Below are positions 1 through 10,145 of a DNA stretch of 31,131 nt, piece after piece; the first letter of the stretch is position 1; each line of letters starts with the position of its first letter. This DNA comes from a virus (taxonomy: Duplodnaviria; Caudoviricetes). Below the pieces are notes generated by a model. The model did no database searches. It saw nothing but the letters and a program-made list of their open reading frames with translations, and was not told the origin of the DNA. Made by a program: the position numbers and the translations under genes. The stretch spans positions 1 through 31,131 of IMG/VR virus record IMGVR_UViG_3300020045_001881. One strand, given 5' to 3'.

Positions 1-88
1 CACGACCGACAAGCTGCGCGCCAGCTTCGCCCTGACCGCCGAGCAGGACGCCAAGGTAATCGACGAACTGAGCAACACAAATGCATAA
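1..88 (+). CDS. C-terminus of an upstream gene (partial), possibly a recombination/ssDNA-annealing partner
   Basis: Open frame TTDKLRASFALTAEQDAKVIDELSNTNA* ends at TAA 86-88, overlapping the exonuclease start; function inferred from position only. Confidence 0.5.
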   Translation, partial: TTDKLRASFALTAEQDAKVIDELSNTNA

Positions 89-707
89 ATTCCGCGCATC
101 AAGCCTCGGGCTGATCATGACCGATCCAAAGTCGAAGGACGAACCGCTATCAGCCGGCGCCAAGACGGAAATCGAGAAGCTGGCGAAGCAGCTTGTCTAT
201 GGGTACGACGAAATCGTCACAAGCAAATACATGGACAAGGGCATCCAAGTCGAGGACAAGGCAATCGAGCTTTACAACTCGGTTTTCTTCACCGATCACA
301 AAAAAAACACAGAGCGCAAGACAAACGACTGGATCACTGGCGAGTGCGACATTTTCGCGCAGGACAAGATCATCGACATCAAATCGTCTTGGTCATTGGC
401 GACTTTCCCTGCGACAAGTAGGGCCGGCCAGGACAAGCTCTACGAATGGCAGGGACGCGCTTACATGTGGCTGTGGGATGTTGATCTGTTCGAGATCGCC
501 TATTGCCTGGTCAACACGCCAGACGACCTGATCGGATGGGAGGATCAATCCTTGCACTACGTTGACCACATTGCCGAGCCGCTTCGAGTTACGCGCGTGC
601 AATACAAGCGCGACCGCGAGCTTGAAGCAAAGATTCAAACCCGCGTTGACGCTGCAAACAAATACATGGATGAAATCGTTCAGCAGATTGCGGCGGAACA
701 CTCTTAA
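81..707 (+). CDS. Phage recombination exonuclease, YqaJ/lambda-exo-like PD-(D/E)XK family
   Basis: FRASSLG N-terminus, G...E motif (KGIQVEDKAI), TGECD...IIDIKSSW catalytic motif, YEWQGRAYM. Confidence 0.8.
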   Translation: MHKFRASSLGLIMTDPKSKDEPLSAGAKTEIEKLAKQLVYGYDEIVTSKYMDKGIQVEDKAIELYNSVFFTDHKKNTERKTNDWITGECDIFAQDKIIDIKSSWSLATFPATSRAGQDKLYEWQGRAYMWLWDVDLFEIAYCLVNTPDDLIGWEDQSLHYVDHIAEPLRVTRVQYKRDRELEAKIQTRVDAANKYMDEIVQQIAAEHS

Positions 708-714
708 AACTTAC

Positions 715-794
715 GTTGCGAAAGCCGCGCAGCCACGAATAGCTTGAATCGCGGAGCGAGTAGCGCGATATCTGGCGGCGCAGCGAGTAGCAAC
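715..794 (+). ncRNA. Candidate structured intergenic RNA with loop-E-like GAA/AGUA motifs
   Basis: GTTGC(715-719)/GCAAC(790-794), GCCA/TGGC and TCGCG/CGCGA pairings; AGCGAGTAGC occurs twice (755-764, 782-791). Confidence 0.4.
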
Positions 795-809
795 ACCAAA
801 TGAGGATAG

Positions 810-1199
810 ATGATGTTAAATTTACAAGCATTGATTGACGGCATGAACGCGCAATGGCAACGCGAGCGCGCCGAAACGCAAATGACGCTAGGCAAGCTGA
901 TTGCCGCACTGGAAGCGATGCCAGAAGGTGCGAATGTGGCCAACCTATGCGACGTCGGCAGCTACCGTGGCTATTACAGTGACTTGTATTTCGAGCATCT
1001 TGAAGGTATGCGTTCTGCATCCGACCTGTTAGCCGAGTGCAAGGACGCGATGGGCCAGGTATTCACAGGATACAAAGGCGGCGAATTCATGATGGGCGCG
1101 ATGACGCCGCTATGGATTGCCAGTTATGGCCATTGCGGGCGAAAACTTATGGCCGTGCATGTTGGCGGTGAAGTTGAGACAGCAGAAGACGAGGAATGA
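810..1199 (+). CDS. Conserved phage hypothetical protein
   Basis: GAGG RBS; SYRGYYSDL and FTGYKGGEF motifs; overlaps next gene. Confidence 0.75.
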   Translation: MMLNLQALIDGMNAQWQRERAETQMTLGKLIAALEAMPEGANVANLCDVGSYRGYYSDLYFEHLEGMRSASDLLAECKDAMGQVFTGYKGGEFMMGAMTPLWIASYGHCGRKLMAVHVGGEVETAEDEE

Positions 1200-1498
1200 T
1201 GATGAGCAAACAACCAGAGGCACTGCGATTGGCTGATGAGCTTGAGCGATCGGTAAATAACCCGCATCTGTACTGGCAAGGGAAAGCAGCAGCCGAACTC
1301 CGCCGTCTTCACGCGCTCAATGTTGAGCTGGTGGAGGCGCTGCAAGCGCTTGTCGTATCAGCCGGCCACGAGATCAATTCCGCTTCTGACGCCGATCTAA
1401 TGGATGGTGTTGCAGACCCAAACCAAGAGGACGAAACAAGAATGCAGCTAGCCGCATTTTTGAGAGCACGCGCAGCACTCGCAAAGGCATCATCATGA
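1196..1498 (+). CDS. Phage hypothetical protein
   Basis: ATGA coupling; QPEALRLADEL, AAAELRRLHA and ARAALAKA phage modules. Confidence 0.75.
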   Translation: MMMSKQPEALRLADELERSVNNPHLYWQGKAAAELRRLHALNVELVEALQALVVSAGHEINSASDADLMDGVADPNQEDETRMQLAAFLRARAALAKASS

Positions 1499-2103
1499 GC
1501 CCGGAAACTGCTCGGATGGCGCTTGAGGCGCTGAACATGCTGCTGTCAACTGCAAACCACGGCGCGTCTGTAGAGCACGACGCACGCCAAGCCATCGCAG
1601 CCATTGAGGCGGAGCTTGCGCAGGCGGTGGACGAAATTGGCGTTCGCGGTTTGCTGGCTGCAAAGTTGTCATGCTGGCACCGGCTTACGGAAATTGAATC
1701 CGCTGAGCTGGTGGCGCTCTACACATCGCGAATTGCGCAGCCGGTGGAGCCGGTAGCGTGGCTCACCGGGGATGAAATTGTTTCTTTCGGGCGCATGAAA
1801 TACGGCTTTATTGATCGTAGGGACAGGGCTATACCCGACTCGTGGCAGCCGCTCTACACATCCCCGCCAATCCCCGCAGGCTGGCAGCCGATTGAAACGG
1901 CGCCGAAGGATGGGACGGCGGTACTGGTTTATCCGCCGTTGTGGAACGAACGAACGTGCTCCATTGCCAGATTTGACGACGACAAATATTCAAAAAAACC
2001 GCGCCCATTTTGGGCTAGAGACGATGACCTTGGTAGGGTTTCTTACAGCCGGGCTAACCCGCCAACCAACTGGATGCCACTGCCAGCAGCGCCAAAGGCT
2101 TAG
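1495..2103 (+). CDS. Phage modular protein with DUF551-like C-terminus
   Basis: EPVAW/PLYT module, then WQPIETAPKDGT...PTNWMPLPAAP. Confidence 0.75.
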   Translation: MSPETARMALEALNMLLSTANHGASVEHDARQAIAAIEAELAQAVDEIGVRGLLAAKLSCWHRLTEIESAELVALYTSRIAQPVEPVAWLTGDEIVSFGRMKYGFIDRRDRAIPDSWQPLYTSPPIPAGWQPIETAPKDGTAVLVYPPLWNERTCSIARFDDDKYSKKPRPFWARDDDLGRVSYSRANPPTNWMPLPAAPKA

Positions 2104-2105
2104 CC

Positions 2106-2543
2106 ATGAACACCGCCCAGCAAAGCTACACGCCGCACACGATCTGGCACGGTGGCCGCCCATCATGCCTGCCGCCGATGACGCCGAAGCCGAAGCGCGT
2201 AGCAAAGCCCGTCAAAGTGAAGCCGACGAAAAGCGGCCCGACGATGAAATGTCTGCACTGCGGCGCTGTTTTCCAAAAGCTTACAAAACAATCAGCGGCT
2301 GAGTTCAAGCGCCGCAAATACTGCTCTGAGGCGTGCGACTTGAGCGCCAAGGCGATTGTTCGCAATGCACGGCAAGACGCAGTTCTCGCGCTGCTACCGG
2401 CGACGATTGCAGAGATGATGCGCAGCGCTGGGATGACTTATGCGGAGACGGAAAAGGTCATCAGGCTTTTGGTCATCGCAAAGCGGATCGTCAGCGAGCC
2501 GAACGGACGGCATCCGCGAATTTACAGGAGGATAGGATCATGA
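2106..2543 (+). CDS. Putative zinc-finger/winged-helix DNA-binding protein
   Basis: CLHCG...KYCSEAC followed by a wHTH-like C-terminus. Confidence 0.6.
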   Translation: MNTAQQSYTPHTIWHGGRPSCLPPMTPKPKRVAKPVKVKPTKSGPTMKCLHCGAVFQKLTKQSAAEFKRRKYCSEACDLSAKAIVRNARQDAVLALLPATIAEMMRSAGMTYAETEKVIRLLVIAKRIVSEPNGRHPRIYRRIGS

Positions 2544-2929
2544 ACATGTGGGCCGCATTAGTTCCTGAACAGCGCATAACGCATCGCCATGTCGTCGCAA
2601 AACCGCAGCCAGACAAGCGAGAAAAGCGCCTGAATGACGCCGCATTGCGAACTTCTGCATCGCGCACGAAACGCGAGCTGAAACAGGCTGAAATCGCGCG
2701 GCTTATGGGGCTTGCAAACAGCAATGGCGCTAGCCAAACGCAGGGCGGCGCGCTGGAGGAAAAACGCCGCGAGCTTGGTTTGAAGCAATACGAACTTGCC
2801 GATCTTCTCGGAGTCAGCAAGCACTATTACAGCGACGTGAAGGCCGGCCGGCGCACACTGCATCTTGCTGCTGCGCGGCGAGCGTTTGCGCTTGGGGTGG
2901 ATGCGGGTGTGTTGCTGGGTAACGCATAG
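2540..2929 (+). CDS. XRE-family HTH protein
   Basis: ATGA overlap with AGGA RBS; RRELGLKQYELADLLGVSKHYYSDVKAGRR; stop codon lies within attC-like site A1. Confidence 0.7.
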   Translation: MNMWAALVPEQRITHRHVVAKPQPDKREKRLNDAALRTSASRTKRELKQAEIARLMGLANSNGASQTQGGALEEKRRELGLKQYELADLLGVSKHYYSDVKAGRRTLHLAAARRAFALGVDAGVLLGNA

Positions 2930-2970
2930 CTGCCCGGTGCGGAGCATCCGTGCCGAGCGTTGAGTTAAAC
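2917..2970 (-). repeat. attC-like site A1
   Basis: Minus strand GTTTAAC-TCAACG-CTCGGC...GGCAG-CTATGC-GTTACCC; R and L boxes present, L pairing imperfect. Confidence 0.6.
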
Positions 2971-2991
2971 CGAATTTTGATGGAGACGAAT

Positions 2992-3267
2992 ATGGACGAG
3001 CGAGGCGCGAAGGCGCAAGGACTAGAAGTGCACCGCCGAGATATGGCGTTTGTGCGTGGGTTTGTTACCTGCACGAACTGCGGAGCGAACTACCACGCGG
3101 CCAACCCGCGAGCAAGGACGTTCTGCCAGATGTACAGCAGGCCCGTGGAGCCGCTTGAAACTGAGAAGAACATTCTCATGGCCGAAGCGTGCGACCAGTG
3201 GGTTGCGGATGGACTGGACCGCAACATGGTTGTTCATCCTGACCACTCGTACAGATACGAAGATTGA
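2992..3267 (+). CDS. Cassette-borne hypothetical protein with CxxC
   Basis: GGAG RBS at 2982-2985; flanked by complementary GTTAAACCG(2964-2972)/CGGTTTAAC(3270-3278). Confidence 0.65.
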   Translation: MDERGAKAQGLEVHRRDMAFVRGFVTCTNCGANYHAANPRARTFCQMYSRPVEPLETEKNILMAEACDQWVADGLDRNMVVHPDHSYRYED

Positions 3268-3271
3268 TGCG

Positions 3272-3329
3272 GTTTAACGTTGGAGTTGAACGATGAACGA
3301 AGTGAATACGGTCGAACGACCTGTTATGC
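3272..3329 (-). repeat. attC-like site A2
   Basis: Minus strand GCATAAC-AGGTCG-TTCGAC...TTCAA-CTCCAAC-GTTAAAC. Confidence 0.7.
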
Positions 3330-3577
3330 CGGTGGCGTGGATGTCGCTGCGTGATAGGTTTTACAAGACCCGCATGATGGCTGTAGAGAACTGCGAACAA
3401 CTGGTGACGGCGCTATACGCGCTGACGCCTGAGCAAGTCGCTGTGCTGGAAAAGTACGCGGCAGATAAAGCATGGGCGGCGCGAGATTTGAGCAAATGCA
3501 AGTGTGACCACAACGAAACGTGCGAACACTGCTATCAGCCGAACCTACGGCATAACGCAGAAATAACCGGCGGCTGA
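3293..3577 (+). CDS. Cassette-borne phage hypothetical protein
   Basis: Starts inside A2 (alternative ATG at 3326), stops inside A3; PVAW module and Cys-rich C-terminus. Confidence 0.65.
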   Translation: MNEVNTVERPVMPVAWMSLRDRFYKTRMMAVENCEQLVTALYALTPEQVAVLEKYAADKAWAARDLSKCKCDHNETCEHCYQPNLRHNAEITGG

Positions 3578-3607
3578 AAGCCGTCCGCGTTGATTGACGG
3601 GTTAGCC
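3550..3607 (-). repeat. attC-like site A3
   Basis: Minus strand GGCTAAC-CCGTCA-ATCAAC-GCGGAC GGCTTTCAGCC GCCG-GTTAT-TTCTGC-GTTATGC; canonical architecture. Confidence 0.85.
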
Positions 3608-3632
3608 GTCTGATAACTACGGAGAAAAGAAG

Positions 3633-4052
3633 ATGAAACCGGAACAGAAACTGAAATGGGCGGTGCTGGCAAAAGTGGCCGGATGGGAGAAGAAGCCGGC
3701 GCCAGAGTACCCGTGCGCGAACGTGGACGAACTCTACGACGCGCTGGTCGAAGCGGAGTCACATTGGGATGGCAAGTCCGAAGTGCGCAGCGGCGAGGTT
3801 GAGACCGGCCTGCCGTGCGACTGGTCACGCCACTACGAGAGCAAGGCCGTTGCCATGAAGATGCCTGACGGCTCGTGGGTCGGATGGACGTACTGGTACG
3901 GCGGTGGCAAGCACGGCGAACCGGAGGCGATTGACTGGATGGAAGACGCCTACGACTTGGATTGCCGCGAAGAGGAAAAGACGATGATCGTGCGGACATT
4001 CAGCAAGCCCGAGACGGCTAACGCAAATTCCACGACACGTCCAAATAACTAA
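3633..4052 (+). CDS. Cassette-borne conserved phage hypothetical protein
   Basis: GGAG RBS; SRHYESKAVA...WVGWTYWYGGGKHGEPEAIDW; ends GTTAGCCGTCT(3601-3611)/AGACGGCTAAC(4012-4022) are complementary. Confidence 0.8.
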   Translation: MKPEQKLKWAVLAKVAGWEKKPAPEYPCANVDELYDALVEAESHWDGKSEVRSGEVETGLPCDWSRHYESKAVAMKMPDGSWVGWTYWYGGGKHGEPEAIDWMEDAYDLDCREEEKTMIVRTFSKPETANANSTTRPNN

Positions 4053-4062
4053 TTACTGCGAC

Positions 4063-4263
4063 ATGTCGCATAACTATGGAGCCGATATGCAGCGATCAAA
4101 AATAGCGATCTGCGTGCCGCGCGACAAAGGCATGCCGCCATACGCGCAGTGCGCCGGATGCTCGCGGACTGCTTGGGCTATTGCTGACGGCAAGCGGCCA
4201 ATTCAGCACCCGCCAGCGCTTGATAAACAGGGCGAGTGCCCGAGTAGATTGGAGATGAAATGA
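4063..4263 (+). CDS. Small hypothetical protein (start uncertain)
   Basis: Cys-containing ORF coupled to the next gene by ATGA. Confidence 0.5.
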   Translation: MSHNYGADMQRSKIAICVPRDKGMPPYAQCAGCSRTAWAIADGKRPIQHPPALDKQGECPSRLEMK

Positions 4264-4376
4264 CGGACAACCAAGTATTCGCTATCTGCGGCGCAGTAGT
4301 CGGATTGGCATTTTTTGCTGTGTGCGCGCTAAGAATCTGGCTTGATCACAAGGAAGAAATGAGGGAAGAGGAATGA
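4260..4376 (+). CDS. 38-aa single-pass membrane protein
   Basis: MTDNQVFAICGAVVGLAFFAVCALRIWLDHKEEMREEE; GGAG RBS; ATGA overlaps at both ends; too short for the ORF track. Confidence 0.65.
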   Translation: MTDNQVFAICGAVVGLAFFAVCALRIWLDHKEEMREEE

Positions 4377-4618
4377 ACAACGACGCGAGCCGGGAGGCGT
4401 TTGAAAAGTGGTGTCGCACAGACGACGAAGACCTTGAAGACGGCTCCCCAAGCCCACACGACTATGACGCTCATCATAAATACTGGCTTTACGCGGCTTG
4501 GCAAGCATCACGCAAGCAGGCGCTTGAAGAGGCGGCGAAAGCCTGCGACGACCTCAGCAATGGAGTGCTGCACTACGCAGACTACTACTGTGCAAAAGTA
4601 ATCAGGAGCATGAAATGA
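4373..4618 (+). CDS. Phage hypothetical protein
   Basis: REAFEKW...AWQASRKQALEEAAKAC modules; ATGA coupling. Confidence 0.7.
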   Translation: MNNDASREAFEKWCRTDDEDLEDGSPSPHDYDAHHKYWLYAAWQASRKQALEEAAKACDDLSNGVLHYADYYCAKVIRSMK

Positions 4619-4806
4619 CAAAAATAGGCTGCGTGCAGCACGACTGCGATGAATGCAAGAGGCGCGAATCAGATCAGCGCAAGTTGCGCGAAATGATCGA
4701 AACCGCGTGGATTGCCGGCTACTACCACGCGGGCTATACAAACGATGGCGCCTATGCTCAAGCCGAGGCGGCCAAGTGTGCGGATGAACTTTTGGGGGCG
4801 AAATGA
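4615..4806 (+). CDS. Phage hypothetical protein
   Basis: IGCVQHDCDEC motif; ATGA coupling. Confidence 0.65.
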   Translation: MTKIGCVQHDCDECKRRESDQRKLREMIETAWIAGYYHAGYTNDGAYAQAEAAKCADELLGAK

Positions 4807-5648
4807 TGACGACTATTGAAGCAATGAAGCAGGCGCTTGAAGCGCTTGCGAAGTACATTGGAGGCGTCAGCATTCTGAACGACGGCCCCGATGCTAGTGA
4901 TGTAGAGCATGCAAATGAAATGCTTGTCAAAAGTATGCAATTGGCTCGCCCGGCAATAAATGCCCTGCGCGAAGCCATTGCCCACGAGGAAGCGCAGATG
5001 GCGGAGCCGGTGGCATGGCGAGTTTGGATTGGCAACAATGACGGTCAGCAATACATCTACAGCGAGGATGGCGACGGCGAACCGCTCTACACACGCCCAG
5101 CCCCAGCGAAAACCAGCGAGCGGGCTGCGTTGATCAATGAATCCAGAGTATTTGCAGACAATTTACGCGTGGTGATGGAGGATCAAGCGGCTGGTGTTAT
5201 TGATTCTTTATGCGACATGCTGGCCGCTGATGCCGATGCATACAACCAAGGCCGGTATGATGAGCAGGCGGCCCAAGGCCCATATCCTTATCCGGAGGAT
5301 GAGCCGATGGCCGCCGATGCGCAGGAAGTGGCAGTGCCGCCTGGGTGGAAGCTGGCGCCGATTGAGCCTACTCAAAAGATGCTTGATGCAACTTATGCGG
5401 GACAGCATTGCAGCGAGATATGGCACGACATGCTCAACGCCGCGCCACAGCCGCCACAAGCAGGGCGCAAGCAGATGGCGGATGATGAGATTTTGAGCCT
5501 TGTAACAGTCCGCTATCCTAATTGGCGTCAGGACATCCAGCCTGCGTTTGTCTTATGGGTGGCCCGCGCCATCGAAGCCCATTACAAGATTGGCAAGCAA
5601 GAGCCTACGGATTGGAGTGCGGCAGCCATTGGGGAGGCGATGCCATGA
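4803..5648 (+). CDS. Phage modular hypothetical protein
   Basis: IEAMKQALEAL, EPVAW..PLYT, VPPGWKLAPIEPT and ARAIEA modules. Confidence 0.75.
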   Translation: MMTTIEAMKQALEALAKYIGGVSILNDGPDASDVEHANEMLVKSMQLARPAINALREAIAHEEAQMAEPVAWRVWIGNNDGQQYIYSEDGDGEPLYTRPAPAKTSERAALINESRVFADNLRVVMEDQAAGVIDSLCDMLAADADAYNQGRYDEQAAQGPYPYPEDEPMAADAQEVAVPPGWKLAPIEPTQKMLDATYAGQHCSEIWHDMLNAAPQPPQAGRKQMADDEILSLVTVRYPNWRQDIQPAFVLWVARAIEAHYKIGKQEPTDWSAAAIGEAMP

Positions 5649-5803
5649 CATGCGAACACGGCTGCAACGGCTGTGATGAGTGCATCGACGATGACGACTC
5701 ATACGATGAACCAGAGTGCGAGCGCTGCCACGGCGACGGCATGGACCCGTTGACCGACTGCCTGCTGCCGTGTCCACTTTGCCAAGGAGAACAACGACCA
5801 TGA
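5645..5803 (+). CDS. Small Cys-rich zinc-finger protein
   Basis: CERCHGDG...CPLCQGE (CxxCxGxG type); ATGA overlaps. Confidence 0.6.
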   Translation: MTCEHGCNGCDECIDDDDSYDEPECERCHGDGMDPLTDCLLPCPLCQGEQRP

Positions 5804-6045
5804 ACCGCTACCGCTGCACCAGCTGCAAAAAGATCAGCGCCGGCCTAGAGTTACTTCAAGCCGTCAACCCGTTTGATCCGACCGACGCGATAACCGGCTG
5901 CCCGCATTGCAAACAGATCGACAACTTTGATGCCGTGTGCGATGAGCCTGGCTGCGATGAAACTGTTTGTGGCGGCTGGCCGAGTGAAGCTGGGTATCGG
6001 CTTACTTGCAGCAAGCATTGGAATAAGAAAGTGAGGGTTGAATGA
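5800..6045 (+). CDS. Small zinc-finger protein
   Basis: CTSC, CPHC, CDEPGC...CSKH; ATGA overlaps. Confidence 0.65.
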   Translation: MNRYRCTSCKKISAGLELLQAVNPFDPTDAITGCPHCKQIDNFDAVCDEPGCDETVCGGWPSEAGYRLTCSKHWNKKVRVE

Positions 6046-6281
6046 GCGCCATGAACCTACAACCCATAGCAATTGACCCCGACGGCGCAGCGCAGTTTGT
6101 GGCCTTGTCGGTCAGCACACTGGAAAAACTTGTGCGCCAAGGCGACTTCCCAAAGCCGCGAAAAGTCAGCGACCGCCGCGTGGCTTATCTGGTGCGCGAG
6201 TTGATTGAATGGATGGAGTCGCGCCCGGTGAGTGATCTGCTGCCGCCTGCGAATACTGGGGCGAAGAAGGGGGCGGCGTGA
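6042..6281 (+). CDS. AlpA-family excisionase/recombination directionality factor
   Basis: LSVSTLEKLVRQGDFPKPRKVSDRRVAY; located near the integrase. Confidence 0.85.
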   Translation: MSAMNLQPIAIDPDGAAQFVALSVSTLEKLVRQGDFPKPRKVSDRRVAYLVRELIEWMESRPVSDLLPPANTGAKKGAA

Positions 6282-7000
6282 ATGAGTTGGCTCTTTTCGC
6301 GGGCGCTGGTGGAGGAATACTCGGCGGCAAGCTGCTCGGCTGGCGAACAGTCTGCGCAGTCGAGTTCAACCCCTACGCCGCAAGCGTTCTTGCCCAACGA
6401 CAGAATGAAGGACTTCTCCCTGCCTTCCCGGTTTGGGATGACGTTCGGACCTTTGATGGACACCCTTGGCGCGGACGTGTTGACGTGGTTTCTGGCGGCT
6501 TTCCCTGCCAGGACATCAGCGCGGCAGGCAAGGGAGGCGGCATTGACGGCGCCCGCTCTGGGCTCTGGCGAGAAATGGCCAGAATCATTGGCGAGATTCA
6601 ACCCCGATTCGTCCTCGTGGAAAACAGCCCAATGCTCACTGTTCGCGGACTCGGACGAGTCCTTGGGGATCTGGCCCAAATGGGGTTTGATGCTCGATGG
6701 GGAGTGCTGGGAGCTGCCCACGTTGGCGCGCCCCATCTCCGAGAGCGAATCTGGATTCTGGCCGACGCCGACGGCAGTTACAGCGACGGGTGGCGCAGCG
6801 CTCTGCAAGTGGGGCGGTTCGGGCGCCCGAGCAAAGTTGCGGACGATGGTGACGGCAAAGGAGTTGAATGGCCCGCTAAATCCCCAGTGGGTATCCTGGC
6901 TGATGGGGTGGCCGCTCGGGTGGAGCAGCTTACTGCCCTTGGAAACGGGCAGGTTCCAGCAGTGGCAGCAGCAGCATGGAGAATGCTCGGAGGTTGCTAA
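6278..7000 (+). CDS. C5-cytosine DNA methyltransferase, catalytic (alpha-like) chain lacking motif IX
   Basis: Motifs I (LFAGAGG), IV (GGFPCQD), VI (ENSP), VIII (HLRERIW), X (ALGNGQVP). Confidence 0.9.
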   Translation: MNELALFAGAGGGILGGKLLGWRTVCAVEFNPYAASVLAQRQNEGLLPAFPVWDDVRTFDGHPWRGRVDVVSGGFPCQDISAAGKGGGIDGARSGLWREMARIIGEIQPRFVLVENSPMLTVRGLGRVLGDLAQMGFDARWGVLGAAHVGAPHLRERIWILADADGSYSDGWRSALQVGRFGRPSKVADDGDGKGVEWPAKSPVGILADGVAARVEQLTALGNGQVPAVAAAAWRMLGGC

Positions 7001-7034
7001 ATTAACGCCTCCAGCCTCTCCGCCAGCAGCGTAA
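6282..7034 (+). CDS. Overlapping-frame methyltransferase partner (beta-like) chain with motif IX
   Basis: 250 open codons in the +1 frame; WPTPTA and LNPQWVSWLMGWPLGWS (motif IX-like). Confidence 0.7.
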   Translation: MSWLFSRALVEEYSAASCSAGEQSAQSSSTPTPQAFLPNDRMKDFSLPSRFGMTFGPLMDTLGADVLTWFLAAFPARTSARQAREAALTAPALGSGEKWPESLARFNPDSSSWKTAQCSLFADSDESLGIWPKWGLMLDGECWELPTLARPISESESGFWPTPTAVTATGGAALCKWGGSGARAKLRTMVTAKELNGPLNPQWVSWLMGWPLGWSSLLPLETGRFQQWQQQHGECSEVAKLTPPASPPAA

Positions 7035-8238
7035 GCCAGTGCCGGCGCTCTGTGTCGTATTCGTAAAGGTTATAAATCCCCACTACGCCAGGCTGAACGT
7101 GGCCCAATATCGCCTCACCTATTTCATTGTGGCAACCCATCGCCGCCAGCATCGTGCGCCCGGTGCGCCGCAGATCATGTGGGCTCCAGTGCGTAACGGT
7201 CAGGCGTTGGCGCACATGGTCCGGCCTGCTCTTGCAATACGGTTGCAGGTAGTTAACCTTGCTTTGCATGTAAGTCTGCTGCTGGTGCCCGACAACACCC
7301 GCTCTTGACGTGCTCGGAAAAAGCCAGCCATCACAGCGCAGGCGCTGCACGATCTCCAGCGCCCGCCCGACAAGCGGCACGCGCAGATCGGTCGCCGCAG
7401 CTCGGTGCGCGCCCTTGGTCAACGCCTTGGGAACGGTCCACCAAACCCCATCCGTTTCGTCCGTGATCTGGTTGCCGTGCATCTGCACAATCTCAGCGCC
7501 GCGCGTGCAGGTCCACAATTGAACTGTCAGAAAGTCCTGAACTTGCTGGGAAAATAGCGCCAGGTCGTGATTGAGCAGCGTCTTGATTTCCTTGTCGCTC
7601 AAGGTGCGTTTCGCCGTGCCCTTGTGCTTGCCATCGCGGATTGCACCCTTGCTGCGCAGCTTTCGCACCGCGACCAATCTCCACCAGTTTGGTAGCTCAT
7701 CGTCAATGCGCCCCGCGTCCAGCGCATAAGCCCAGGCCGCGCCCATCTCGGTTTTGACGCTGCCGGCAAGTACCGGGCGGTCACTCAAGCCTTCCACCAG
7801 ATCAAACACAAAGCGCCGGGTCACGTCAGCCGCTGGCAGGTCGGCATGGTCGGCCAGTGCGTTGACAAGACGCTGATGCACGGCCTTTGCCCCGCGCGCT
7901 TCCCGGCGTTTGGCAAGGTAGCCGCTCGCATAGTCGTCCACCATCTGGCCCAGGGTGTAGCCTGCATCCGGCGCGTTCTTTGGCTTTGTTTTGCGCGTCA
8001 GGTCTTCGCCTGCGTCCCTGCGTGCGCGAAGCTCCTGCCACTGCTGGGCGGCTTCGGCCACGGGCATTGCGGGCCATGAGCCGATTTTTATTTGCTTTAA
8101 TCTGCCGTGAAGATCGCGATGACGGTAAATCCAGGTGTGCCGCGTTTGCGCCCGCACAAGATGCAGCCCAGGGCAACCGCCCACGACAATGTGCTCACCC
8201 GGTTTAAGCAGTTTTGCAGCCCGCGCATCAAAGTACAT
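6997..8238 (-). CDS. int: P4-type tyrosine integrase with N-terminal arm-binding domain
   Basis: GLHLV...WIYR...IKIGSWPAM arm domain; catalytic TCTRGAE, HDLRRT, ILGH and IYNLY motifs; alternative GTG starts at 8241/8244. Confidence 0.92.
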   Translation of the reverse strand: MYFDARAAKLLKPGEHIVVGGCPGLHLVRAQTRHTWIYRHRDLHGRLKQIKIGSWPAMPVAEAAQQWQELRARRDAGEDLTRKTKPKNAPDAGYTLGQMVDDYASGYLAKRREARGAKAVHQRLVNALADHADLPAADVTRRFVFDLVEGLSDRPVLAGSVKTEMGAAWAYALDAGRIDDELPNWWRLVAVRKLRSKGAIRDGKHKGTAKRTLSDKEIKTLLNHDLALFSQQVQDFLTVQLWTCTRGAEIVQMHGNQITDETDGVWWTVPKALTKGAHRAAATDLRVPLVGRALEIVQRLRCDGWLFPSTSRAGVVGHQQQTYMQSKVNYLQPYCKSRPDHVRQRLTVTHWSPHDLRRTGRTMLAAMGCHNEIGEAILGHVQPGVVGIYNLYEYDTERRHWLTLLAERLEALI

Positions 8239-8248
8239 CACCACCCCA

Positions 8249-8502
8249 AAAACCTATACTAAAACCCATACCAAGGGCCAAGTGTAGCCGGGTTTAAGCA
8301 AGCGCAGAAAAGGCAAAACTACGGCGAAAAGTTACGCCAAACAGGCGAAATATGATGGTAAATCAACGGCTTACGAGATTAATCCCAATGAAATCAACGA
8401 CTTACGAGAATGCTGAAAAACATGAACATAGTGATTCTTGAAAACAGTCTTCTCCAATGGAGAAACGGAGTTTTCTGAAAAACACATACTAAAACCTATA
8501 CT
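8249..8502. other. Putative attP
   Basis: Two pairs of tandem 12-bp repeats (8249-8272, 8479-8502) bracket two WATCAANNNNTTR matches; lies beside the int start. Confidence 0.75.
8361..8404 (+). promoter_or_regulatory. Two IHF-binding consensus sites
   Basis: AATCAACGGCTTA (8361-8373) and AATCAACGACTTA (8392-8404). Confidence 0.75.
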
Positions 8503-8568
8503 TGAACAGTCAGCGCGACCGTTGGCGCATAGACCATTTTCGCGGCGTCACGCAAATGGAAATACCTG

Positions 8569-8597
8569 TTGCGATGCTGGTTTAATCGGAGTATATT
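8569..8597 (+). promoter_or_regulatory. Sigma70-like promoter facing cassette array B
   Basis: TTGCGA-17 bp-TATATT. Confidence 0.65.
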
Positions 8598-8604
8598 TAA
8601 TTGT

Positions 8605-8665
8605 GATTGACGCCGCCTTAACGCGACACCCGTAAGGGCGGTCGCCGTTGAAGGCACAGTTATGC
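8605..8665 (-). repeat. attC-like site B1 (terminal, degenerate R')
   Basis: Minus strand GCATAAC-TGTGCC-TTCAAC-GGCGAC...GTCGC-GTTAA-GGCGGC-GTCAATC. Confidence 0.7.
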
Positions 8666-8680
8666 AACAGGAAGGATGAA

Positions 8681-8923
8681 ATGGAAACGACACCTAGAGT
8701 TATTGGGCTATCGCGTGACAATAGAACCCAGCGATGGAGCGTAACGTGCCCGAAGTGCGGCCATGTATTTGAACCGCAAACGACGAGACTGTCATGGCAA
8801 GACATTGACCGTCCTAAATCAAAGTGCGGAGCGCGAATGATGGCTGACTACAACTCAGAGCCTCCGACCGTGAGGCTGGCGCATAACGCCGCGTTAAGCG
8901 GCGGGCGCAGCCCGTCCGCTTGA
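8681..8923 (+). CDS. Cassette-borne zinc-ribbon protein
   Basis: AGGAAGGA RBS; CPKCG; bounded by GTTATGC/GCATAAC; stop inside B2. Confidence 0.7.
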   Translation: METTPRVIGLSRDNRTQRWSVTCPKCGHVFEPQTTRLSWQDIDRPKSKCGARMMADYNSEPPTVRLAHNAALSGGRSPSA

Positions 8924-8937
8924 ACTGCTGGTTATGC
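8881..8937 (-). repeat. attC-like site B2
   Basis: Minus strand GCATAAC-CAGCAG-TTCAAG-CGGAC GGGCTGCGCCCG CCG-CTTAA-CGCGGC-GTTATGC; canonical. Confidence 0.9.
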
Positions 8938-8963
8938 CGGCGAACTTTGAAAGAGGAGGCGAC

Positions 8964-9290
8964 ATGAGTATTGAAAAACAAATCGTTGAAGCTCAGTACA
9001 TGACCAGTGCTTTGCGACGAGAAGCCGCAGAGGAAATCGCGAGGTTGCGCAACGCATTGGCCCAAAGCGTGCAGATTGTCGCAGAACACCGTGACGGGCG
9101 TCTGGCCGCACTGGAACGGGCCGCAGTCTTTGAGGCGCGGCTGCAAGAGATTGGCGACTTGGCGGCGAGTAGCCAAACAGGCCCGGCACTGCGTGAAGTG
9201 TTGGCACAGATCGAGACGATGACGGATATGAGGCATAACGCAAAAAGTGAGGGGGCGAGCGGATTTATCGCGAAGCTCCCTCTCGACTGA
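8964..9290 (+). CDS. Cassette-borne coiled-coil phage protein
   Basis: GAGGAGG RBS; EAAEEIARLR module; stop inside B3. Confidence 0.7.
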   Translation: MSIEKQIVEAQYMTSALRREAAEEIARLRNALAQSVQIVAEHRDGRLAALERAAVFEARLQEIGDLAASSQTGPALREVLAQIETMTDMRHNAKSEGASGFIAKLPLD

Positions 9291-9300
9291 CGGGTTCGAC
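9233..9300 (-). repeat. attC-like site B3
   Basis: Minus strand GTCGAAC-CCGTCA-GTCGAG-AGGGAG...CCCC-CTCAC-TTTTTGC-GTTATGC. Confidence 0.85.
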
Positions 9301-9343
9301 GGCGACCGTACTGGAAACCACACACCATACCGAGGACGATACG

Positions 9344-9613
9344 ATGCAAACAGAACAAGCGGTGAAGATGGCAGCGAAGCTCTACGAGTGCCGAGACACG
9401 GCAAAGCGGCTCTTTGGCACGGCCTACCAGCAGCGAATGGACGCCTACGGCCAAGCCGTGAAGTCTGCCGCCAACGCGATGAATTGCAGCGAAGTGGCCG
9501 CAGCGACGACGCTGGCGACCAAGGCGGGCGGACTGTCGGCGATCTGCTTCCTGGCCGCCGTGGTGGAGATGACCGAGCCGTCGAACGCTGGAGGTAAGCG
9601 GAGTGACGACTAG
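9344..9613 (+). CDS. Cassette-borne hypothetical protein
   Basis: GAGG RBS; ends GTTCGACGGC(9294-9303)/GCCGTCGAAC(9577-9586) are complementary; stop inside B4. Confidence 0.75.
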   Translation: MQTEQAVKMAAKLYECRDTAKRLFGTAYQQRMDAYGQAVKSAANAMNCSEVAAATTLATKAGGLSAICFLAAVVEMTEPSNAGGKRSDD

Positions 9614-9660
9614 GAGCGAAGCGACGACGGCGGTACGGCCGCTTGACCGCAATGTTATGC
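9580..9660 (-). repeat. attC-like site B4
   Basis: Minus strand GCATAAC-ATTGCG-GTCAAG-CGG...CCG-CTTAC-CTCCAGC-GTTCGAC. Confidence 0.85.
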
Positions 9661-10145
9661 GTATTTGGTGCTGCGGATGTGGTTGTGACGTGGATGCACG
9701 GCTGACGGACGGAGGAGAGATTTACCCGCACCGTGAAGACCTGCATAGCCTGCCGTTTTGGCGCTGCAACACCTGCGGTAACTTTGTTGGGTGCCACCAC
9801 AAGACAAAGAACCGGACGGCCCCGCTTGGGTGCATTCCTACGCCGGAGTTGAAGGAAGCCCGCAAGCACTTGCATGCACTGATTGACCCGATATGGCAGT
9901 CGGGGCGTATGGGGCGGCGCGAACTGTACGAGGCGATTAGCCGCGAGGTTGGCTGGAACTATCACACGGCCAAGACTCGCACGATTGAAGAGGCGCGGGC
10001 AGCCTACAAAGCCGCGCAGAAGCTGACGCATAAGCAATATATAGAGCAAAAGGCGCCCTATAACACCACTGCAGGCGCAACAAAAAGCGGCGCAAAGTCT
10101 CACACACCAGCGCCATGCAGCTACATTAAAAATAGCAACAATTAG
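9603..10145 (+). CDS. Cassette-borne DUF3268-like zinc-finger protein
   Basis: CCGCG...EIYPHR...CNTCGNFVGCH...PLG...H..IDPIW; start at GTG 9603 (GGAGG RBS inside B4) or ATG 9657. Confidence 0.75.
   Translation: MTTRSEATTAVRPLDRNVMRIWCCGCGCDVDARLTDGGEIYPHREDLHSLPFWRCNTCGNFVGCHHKTKNRTAPLGCIPTPELKEARKHLHALIDPIWQSGRMGRRELYEAISREVGWNYHTAKTRTIEEARAAYKAAQKLTHKQYIEQKAPYNTTAGATKSGAKSHTPAPCSYIKNSNN

Follow-up and report, generated by a model that had tools for sequence, protein, structure and literature searches.

An attC cassette array with reversed polarity in the early operon of a temperate phage

Clusters of attC sites that lie away from an integrase gene are known as CALINs. In the available text of the sources (PMC4889954; Cury 2016, Qi 2023) they are defined by two or more same-strand attC sites lying within 4 kb, with no integron integrase nearby. 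Phages carry them as well. The phage CALINs and integrons of Qi et al. 2023 (PMC9892861) resemble the locus described here, being attC clusters without intI and with small hypothetical cargo, and five of six phage attC sites tested with IntI1 recombined (PMC9892861). The choice of strand by IntI is set by extrahelical bases and the cleavage occurs in the AAC triplet, as stated in the accessible part of PMC5027507. The first formation of gene cassettes is listed as an open question in the available portion of PMC8618304.

The window analysed here is a whole virus record of 31,131 bases, with completeness estimated at 43%. It belongs to a temperate phage. An exonuclease gene stands at the window start, the early operon runs on the plus strand, and the genes for lysis and tail are encoded on the minus strand. 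The first-pass annotation had placed a three-cassette attC array inside the early operon, and we confirm that this block is a true cassette array. It works like an integron array and fits the CALIN definition, with three minus-strand sites within 700 nt and nothing in the 43%-complete contig that matches TIGR02249, the model for integron integrases. However, it departs from the canonical cassette in two features. The genes are on the plus strand and their sites on the minus strand, and the attC body does not stay with its gene; the bodies found in the window also precede other genes.

For the detection of attC sites we used a purpose-built model trained on bacterial sites, not the IntegronFinder model. 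Forty stretches were fetched beside intI genes of bacterial genomes and gave 132 strict attC candidates by arm pairing alone; the profile comprises 89 bacterial attC (at most five per locus, four evident false matches dropped, core-motif filter applied). In the window the detector returns seven sites: 2917–2970, 3272–3329 and 3550–3607, the very positions of the first-pass annotation, and four more at 8605–9660. Fifteen shuffles yielded one match in total at the same loose threshold and none at the stricter one. The model is tuned to one attC family: phage Rctr41k, where IntI is present, has no model site in its first 12 kb, and P12002L has none in 48 kb. The three sites of the block have outer AAC and GTT boxes, paired L boxes and spacers of 5–6 nt, with lengths of 54, 58 and 58 nt, inside the 50–140 nt range of attC sites. 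Sites 1 and 3 fold into hairpins (−11.1 and −11.5 kcal/mol), site 1 having one mismatch in the L stem, whereas site 2 forms no long hairpin (−4.9 kcal/mol). A search of Rfam gave nothing relevant.

The complementary ends of the three cassettes are exact: 2964–2972 pairs with 3270–3278 (9 nt), 3323–3331 with 3548–3556 (9 nt) and 3601–3611 with 4012–4022 (11 nt). Only five of the 2920 GTT..AAC pairs spaced by 150–600 nt in the window reach 9 nt, namely those of the three block cassettes, that of one cassette of the other array and an unrelated one at 2358/2652. The ends were said to be cassette-specific; this is not strictly so, as the end pair of cassette 2 surrounds other cargo in the related locus L180. 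The other structural claims stand. Eleven of the 13 junctions outside the block (81–7000) overlap by 4 nt in the ATGA manner, while at the block the four junctions are spaced by 62, 25, 55 and 34 nt, and the other array lies 4.6 kb away (4022 to 8605). We also considered whether long end complementarity is itself a novelty. This was ruled out, as the median is 9 nt both in 185 bacterial and in 55 phage-related cassettes. The 2358–2652 pair, an 11-nt complementary GTT..AAC, has no attC model match and is probably due to chance.

Upstream, the array is flanked by an XRE-family HTH gene (2540..2929, plus strand, Pfam HTH_3). Its last codons contain the outer AAC box 2920–2922, the predicted right half of the insertion target, and in the related locus L083 the array is likewise preceded by an HTH homolog, 43% identical, which ends at the same TAAC. 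The model match attC 1 (2917..2970, minus strand), which the textbook would count as cassette 1's own site, stands upstream of ORF1. Its orientation is set by the sequence profile alone, as the stems tie, and near-identical copies with other neighbours are present in all seven metagenome runs compared. The core of cassette 1 (2964..3278, plus strand, bounded by its complementary ends) contains ORF1 (2992–3267), which encodes a Cys-rich protein of 91 aa with 43 homologs. Within the poorly folding attC 2 (3272..3329, minus strand, model match) lie a ribosome-binding motif and the first 11 codons of ORF2, starting from an ATG at 3293, and this module stands before other genes in L180 and in metagenome contigs. 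ORF2 (3293–3577, 94 aa) hence starts inside attC 2 and stops inside attC 3, spanning the core of cassette 2 (3323..3556, plus strand, by complementary ends). It has three homologs besides itself, two of which keep the N-terminal extension, and its search returned no viral loci. In the related locus L081 (about 3330–3450) a decayed hairpin half is apparently translated as the N-terminus of a phage gene, similar to site 2 and ORF2.

The best preserved site is attC 3 (3550..3607, minus strand), the own site of cassette 3 by model match, folding and profile. The core of this cassette (3601..4022, plus strand, by complementary ends) holds most of ORF3 (3633–4052, 139 aa, phrog_25120), which reads through the predicted crossover at 4020–4022. 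Cassette 3 is also found in L001 among other neighbours, with 85% identity over exactly 3550–4023, that is, the upstream hairpin and the core, and its ends carry compensated changes between the window and L001. The block closes with a terminal element (4016..4074, minus strand), likely a degenerate attI, made of a box with a 5-nt spacer, two direct repeats and a 14-bp palindrome. The other array (8605..10033, minus strand) consists of four cassettes with four attC sites at 8605–9660; its polarity is reversed too, and it likewise ends in a bare box. Its first outer box is GAC and its last box is AAG instead of AAC; its hairpin at 9581–9660 is 85% identical to a hairpin of L083 that precedes a different gene. 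Read-through of the 3′ box is seen in ORF2 and ORF3, and also in the HTH gene and in three of the other array's genes. Among such crossing genes AAC is an in-frame codon in 10/10 phage versus 6/13 bacterial cases, which are small and not independent samples.

The first reading of the block had overlooked its polarity. All seven sites of the window score on the minus strand with the genes on the plus strand, and the plus (coding) strand is shaped like the recombining 'bottom' strand, with the same arm asymmetry as the aadA7 bottom strand given in the available part of the supplement of PMC9892861. The extrahelical-base stem scores of the two strands are 7.5 versus 3.5 at site 2 and 9.0 versus 6.5 at site 3, and they are tied at site 1. 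In both arrays the first element is a full hairpin, the outer box of which belongs to the flanking sequence, and the last is a bare box. Seen from the minus strand, the block is a normal array with its start at 4022. The own hairpin of each gene is upstream of it, and the predicted crossover falls at the 3′ end of the gene, beside a weakly attI-like site.

We compared polarity in cassettes lying between consecutive same-strand sites 120–1600 nt apart, counting identical cores once and leaving out the duplicates L125 and L126 and the integrase loci L132–L135. Gene direction was that of the best-ranking ORF, with weight given to an ATG and to a ribosome-binding motif. On bacterial sites the detector agrees with the direction that intI implies. 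The 185 bacterial integron cassettes comprise 146 sense, 11 inverted and 28 uncalled ones (11/157 called are inverted). For the 55 cassettes of the window and related loci the values are 45 inverted, one sense and nine uncalled (45/46 called are inverted), in a sample biased by its collection via ORF1, ORF3 and the terminal element. Three published phages (TJE1, Vibrio and Shewanella) give nine sense, one inverted and four uncalled cassettes (n = 14). The sole sense case among the related loci is in L077 (3872–4523), where an ORF3 homolog occupies a normal-polarity cassette beside DNA methylase-like genes. Insertion of normal cassettes through the top strand was considered as a source of the reversed layout and dropped, as the extrahelical bases show the sites themselves to be reversed.

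The unit of movement also differs from the textbook. Of 110 homologous phage core pairs, compared with L077 left out and not independent because 105 of them come from one family, none shares the flank at the gene 3′ end, 15 share only the flank at the 5′ end and 95 share neither. That family has 15 cores with 15 different 3′ flanks, and its 5′ flanks fall in seven groups. Thus the own hairpin is kept in 15/110 phage pairs versus 8/8 bacterial pairs, the latter being a small control with only one between-genome pair. In L084, L086 and L118 the cores are 97–99% identical and both flanks differ. Hairpins swap partners at the second (GTT) junction too, which the textbook model does not lead one to expect.

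Seven metagenome runs contain near-identical hairpins 1 and 2 as separate pieces, and the four runs compared for hairpin 3 contain it in the same form; the loose ends of these pieces are at the boxes or a few bases beyond. Cores occur in metagenome contigs, of phage or other origin, as pieces ending at 3279 and 4023. Assembled contigs break at repeats, and only records continuing into other sequence were counted. Some junctions fall 9–23 nt inside the core (loose ends 2978, 2980, 2986 and 3331), and one contig joins 2986 to 3270 with other sequence between them. Just after the ORF1 core in L092, and just before it in L098 and L105, an AAC box is followed by 4–5 bases and a GTT box. These collapsed sites look as if the hairpin had been deleted by a crossover between L boxes.

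The locus varies among relatives. L083 has the same upstream HTH gene, terminal element and shared downstream gene, and its cassettes differ; in L082 and L180 the terminal element comes after other last cassettes. The block is therefore not fixed; a fixed block would have been one of two findings that the first-pass annotation had named as speaking against its reading. It had also argued that a second array away from int suggests recurrent capture. This reading is supported in part, by a real array that varies across relatives; the position relative to int carries no weight. The integrase at 6997..8244 (minus strand), outside the array, is a phage (prophage) integrase with Arm-DNA-bind_3 and Phage_integrase domains. 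It gives no match to TIGR02249, and the whole 43%-complete contig lacks intI; as the enzyme is of phage type and not IntI, its nearness to or distance from the cassettes is uninformative. The two arrays may represent separate insertions or exchange of ready-made modules between phages. Two further features of the locus and its relatives are worth recording. The C5 DNA methyltransferase ORF at 6278–7000 is wholly overlapped by a 250-aa ORF in another plus frame (6278–7034 region), which also matches phage families and overlaps the 3′ end of the integrase with its own end. L083 has a small Cys-rich gene at each end of its array (about 2550–2670 and 4000–4110), the two copies having diverged.

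The empty site proposed by the first-pass annotation, with 2922 joined to 4023, coincides with the predicted crossover position. It was found in no phage; the viral scan gave no HTH relatives, and the sole HTH relative, L083, is occupied. No sequencing run contained the whole block. At the other end of the array, we scored the terminal element with a profile built from 24 of 26 bacterial attI sites, the other two having been set aside as missed halves of attC. The 18 terminal bases of the window score −0.4, which is within the top 0.7% of 881 background sites, yet below 22 of the 24 true attI. Among 11 array ends, six others score from −0.1 to 7.4 and four are at background (L082, L090, L102 and L107). 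A sigma-70-type consensus scan of 2500–4400 gave no match; as the genes point to the attI-like end, a Pc there would read antisense. At the shared locus in L082, a cassette at 1998–2470 encodes a protein that, by its motifs, we take to resemble a NADAR-family ADP-ribosyl hydrolase.

A candidate integrase comes from a single relative. L122, a prophage end beside tRNA genes, carries intI over the TIGR02249 cut-off, in two frames. The gene starts about 45 nt after the last cassette, co-directional with the genes, so that, apart from the flipped genes, the layout follows the textbook order of intI, attI and attC. It is the only one of 15 related virus records with intI. Bacteria could supply the enzyme too: of 201 genomes drawn from the order to which one bacterial carrier of an ORF1 homolog belongs, 87 have intI, one row of this set being an unpublished genome. 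The frame change of the L122 intI (5170–5225) coincides with a short tandem duplication and may be an assembly artefact.

The cargo consists of viral gene families. A model site near the gene was found in 4 of 78 viral loci of ORF3 (phrog_25120): two inverted, one sense (L077) and one weak without paired ends. Homologous ORFs without attC flanks were the other finding that the first-pass annotation had held against its reading. This half is indeed observed, since most ORF3 relatives lack attC, but the block is variable. The attC-free relatives leave the cassette reading standing and show that the cargo are ordinary phage genes. A quick tree of 51 ORF3-family proteins places the inverted pair within attC-free phage genes, with L003 as its sister (support 90, unstarred). 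Separate origins of inverted and sense ORF3 cassettes are not supported, as a single clade is not rejected by the AU test (p 0.665). In a set of 33 different ORF1 proteins, 21 lie between paired ends, which are of five kinds, four are contig-cut or one-sided and eight have none. Loss of attC is suggested, because five of these eight nest inside the main cassette clade. Gene traffic into and out of attC cassettes seems to go both ways, its direction being read from weakly supported, unrooted trees.

The search for cargo functions gave no assignment. ORF1–ORF3 match no Pfam or NCBIfam family over the cut-off. The structure model of ORF1 is weak (pLDDT 68) and has no PDB match; that of ORF3 is good (pLDDT 91), but its matches are all to uncharacterised phage proteins and none is in the PDB (best Z 2.7). 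The Atlas gave a Tad3 look-alike at 0.80, which was set aside as below the threshold for a lead.

We suggest that the block is a three-cassette array with hairpins antisense to the phage genes, likely built by IntI acting in trans at a degenerate attI-like site next to the HTH gene. Circular cassettes would be inserted one after another at the 4016–4022 end. The early-operon promoter would read the array towards attI; therefore only genes antisense to attC would be expressed, and thus be favoured by selection, and the newest cassette would be read last, not first. Hairpins would be exchanged at the second (GTT) junction as well, through top-strand events, L-box events or recombination between short homologies. 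Such exchange would let a gene gain, swap or lose its hairpin and could flip the core relative to the hairpin. The IntI mechanism is supported by the uniform polarity, the 3′ junctions at the AAC box, the variable locus and the intI of L122. Against this stand the 95 of 110 pairs that share neither flank, so that the textbook unit covers a minority only, together with the lack of intI in the 43%-complete contig, the weak attI-like score, the poor folding of site 2 and the missing empty site.

The main alternative, an unlikely one, is that the integron-derived hairpins are now portable short homologies and translation-start modules, that single-strand annealing and exonuclease proteins of the phage swap the genes, and that IntI plays a minor part today. 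It would account for hairpin bodies changing partners on both sides, for the near-identical spread of the poorly folding site 2 before different genes and for the junctions 9–23 nt inside the core, and it agrees with an exonuclease gene at the window start in a contig without intI. However, annealing would not maintain the end complementarity of each cassette with its compensated changes between the window and L001, and the 3′ junctions on the AAC box, the uniform polarity and the intI at the array end of L122 also speak against this alternative. Capture of a bacterial chromosomal integron fragment, once and whole, with decay since, is largely refuted and highly improbable. The hairpins do belong to the same sequence family as the sampled bacterial attC, sites 1 and 2 are imperfect, and such captures are published for Vibrio and Shewanella phages (PMC9892861). 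Yet 146 of the 157 called bacterial cassettes are sense, none of the eight proteins of the window arrays matches the 40 bacterial integron stretches, the cargo is viral, and L083 holds other cassettes at the same locus. Hardly any weight is left for ordinary sense cassettes whose inversion is a scoring artefact of near-palindromic sites. The tied stem scores of site 1 and the slightly better folding of the site 8881–8937 on the minus strand point that way, but the same detector agrees with the intI direction in bacteria and calls TJE1, Vibrio and Shewanella mostly sense, the flank that moves with the gene is the upstream one, and both arrays open with a full site and close with a bare box.

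On top of the array's probable origin by IntI, we tentatively propose a broader picture, which we hold to be possible rather than probable. Temperate phages might run a mirror-image integron system with a cassette pool of its own, where phage accessory genes enter and leave reversed attC cassettes via both junctions and hairpins serve as free modules able to carry a translation start. This pool would be silent in bacterial integrons, and the traffic would be a visible route to new cassettes. The reversed polarity would alter the logic of the array: the newest gene would come last, and shuffling would change protein tails. Phage cassettes would be silent under the bacterial Pc, and bacterial ones silent in the phage. 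Such a system would be a site-specific source of small-gene mosaicism in phage early regions. The same gene families occurring without attC, with several cassette ends and once with normal polarity provide concrete pairs for studying the birth and loss of cassettes.

Last, we compare the block with the described systems. Phage attC clusters are known already. No account of inverted phage cassettes was found in the literature searched, which excludes most subscription papers. The TJE1, Vibrio and Shewanella examples of PMC9892861 are, unlike the block, mostly sense by our detector, whereas MW202573, a genome in the same paper, has the same layout by the detector, with four minus-strand sites among plus-strand early genes. 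The main text of PMC9892861, in its available part, contains no mention of antisense genes, an upstream own hairpin, an attI-like end, hairpin partner exchange or the MW202573 layout. Sedentary chromosomal integrons, represented by the 40 stretches, are similar to the block in the family of their attC sequences, in having extrahelical bases and in the median of 9 nt for complementary ends, and they share the intI-attI-attC geometry with L122. However, their gene direction relative to attC is not reversed, and the 5′ end of the gene, not the 3′ end, meets the crossover. Top-strand insertion (Nivina et al. 2016, PMC5027507, as its accessible part describes it) offers a known route to crossover at the second box, of low frequency and varying with the site; there a normal cassette becomes inverted relative to the array, whereas in the block gene and hairpin are mutually inverted, throughout whole arrays. 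The attG insertion of the available text of bioRxiv 10.1101/2022.09.11.507474, where IntI acts at GWT triplets outside integrons and generates small CALINs, is similar as well. In the block, by comparison, one terminal element is reused by several phages and seems closer to an attI that was retained than to a GWT triplet hit at random.
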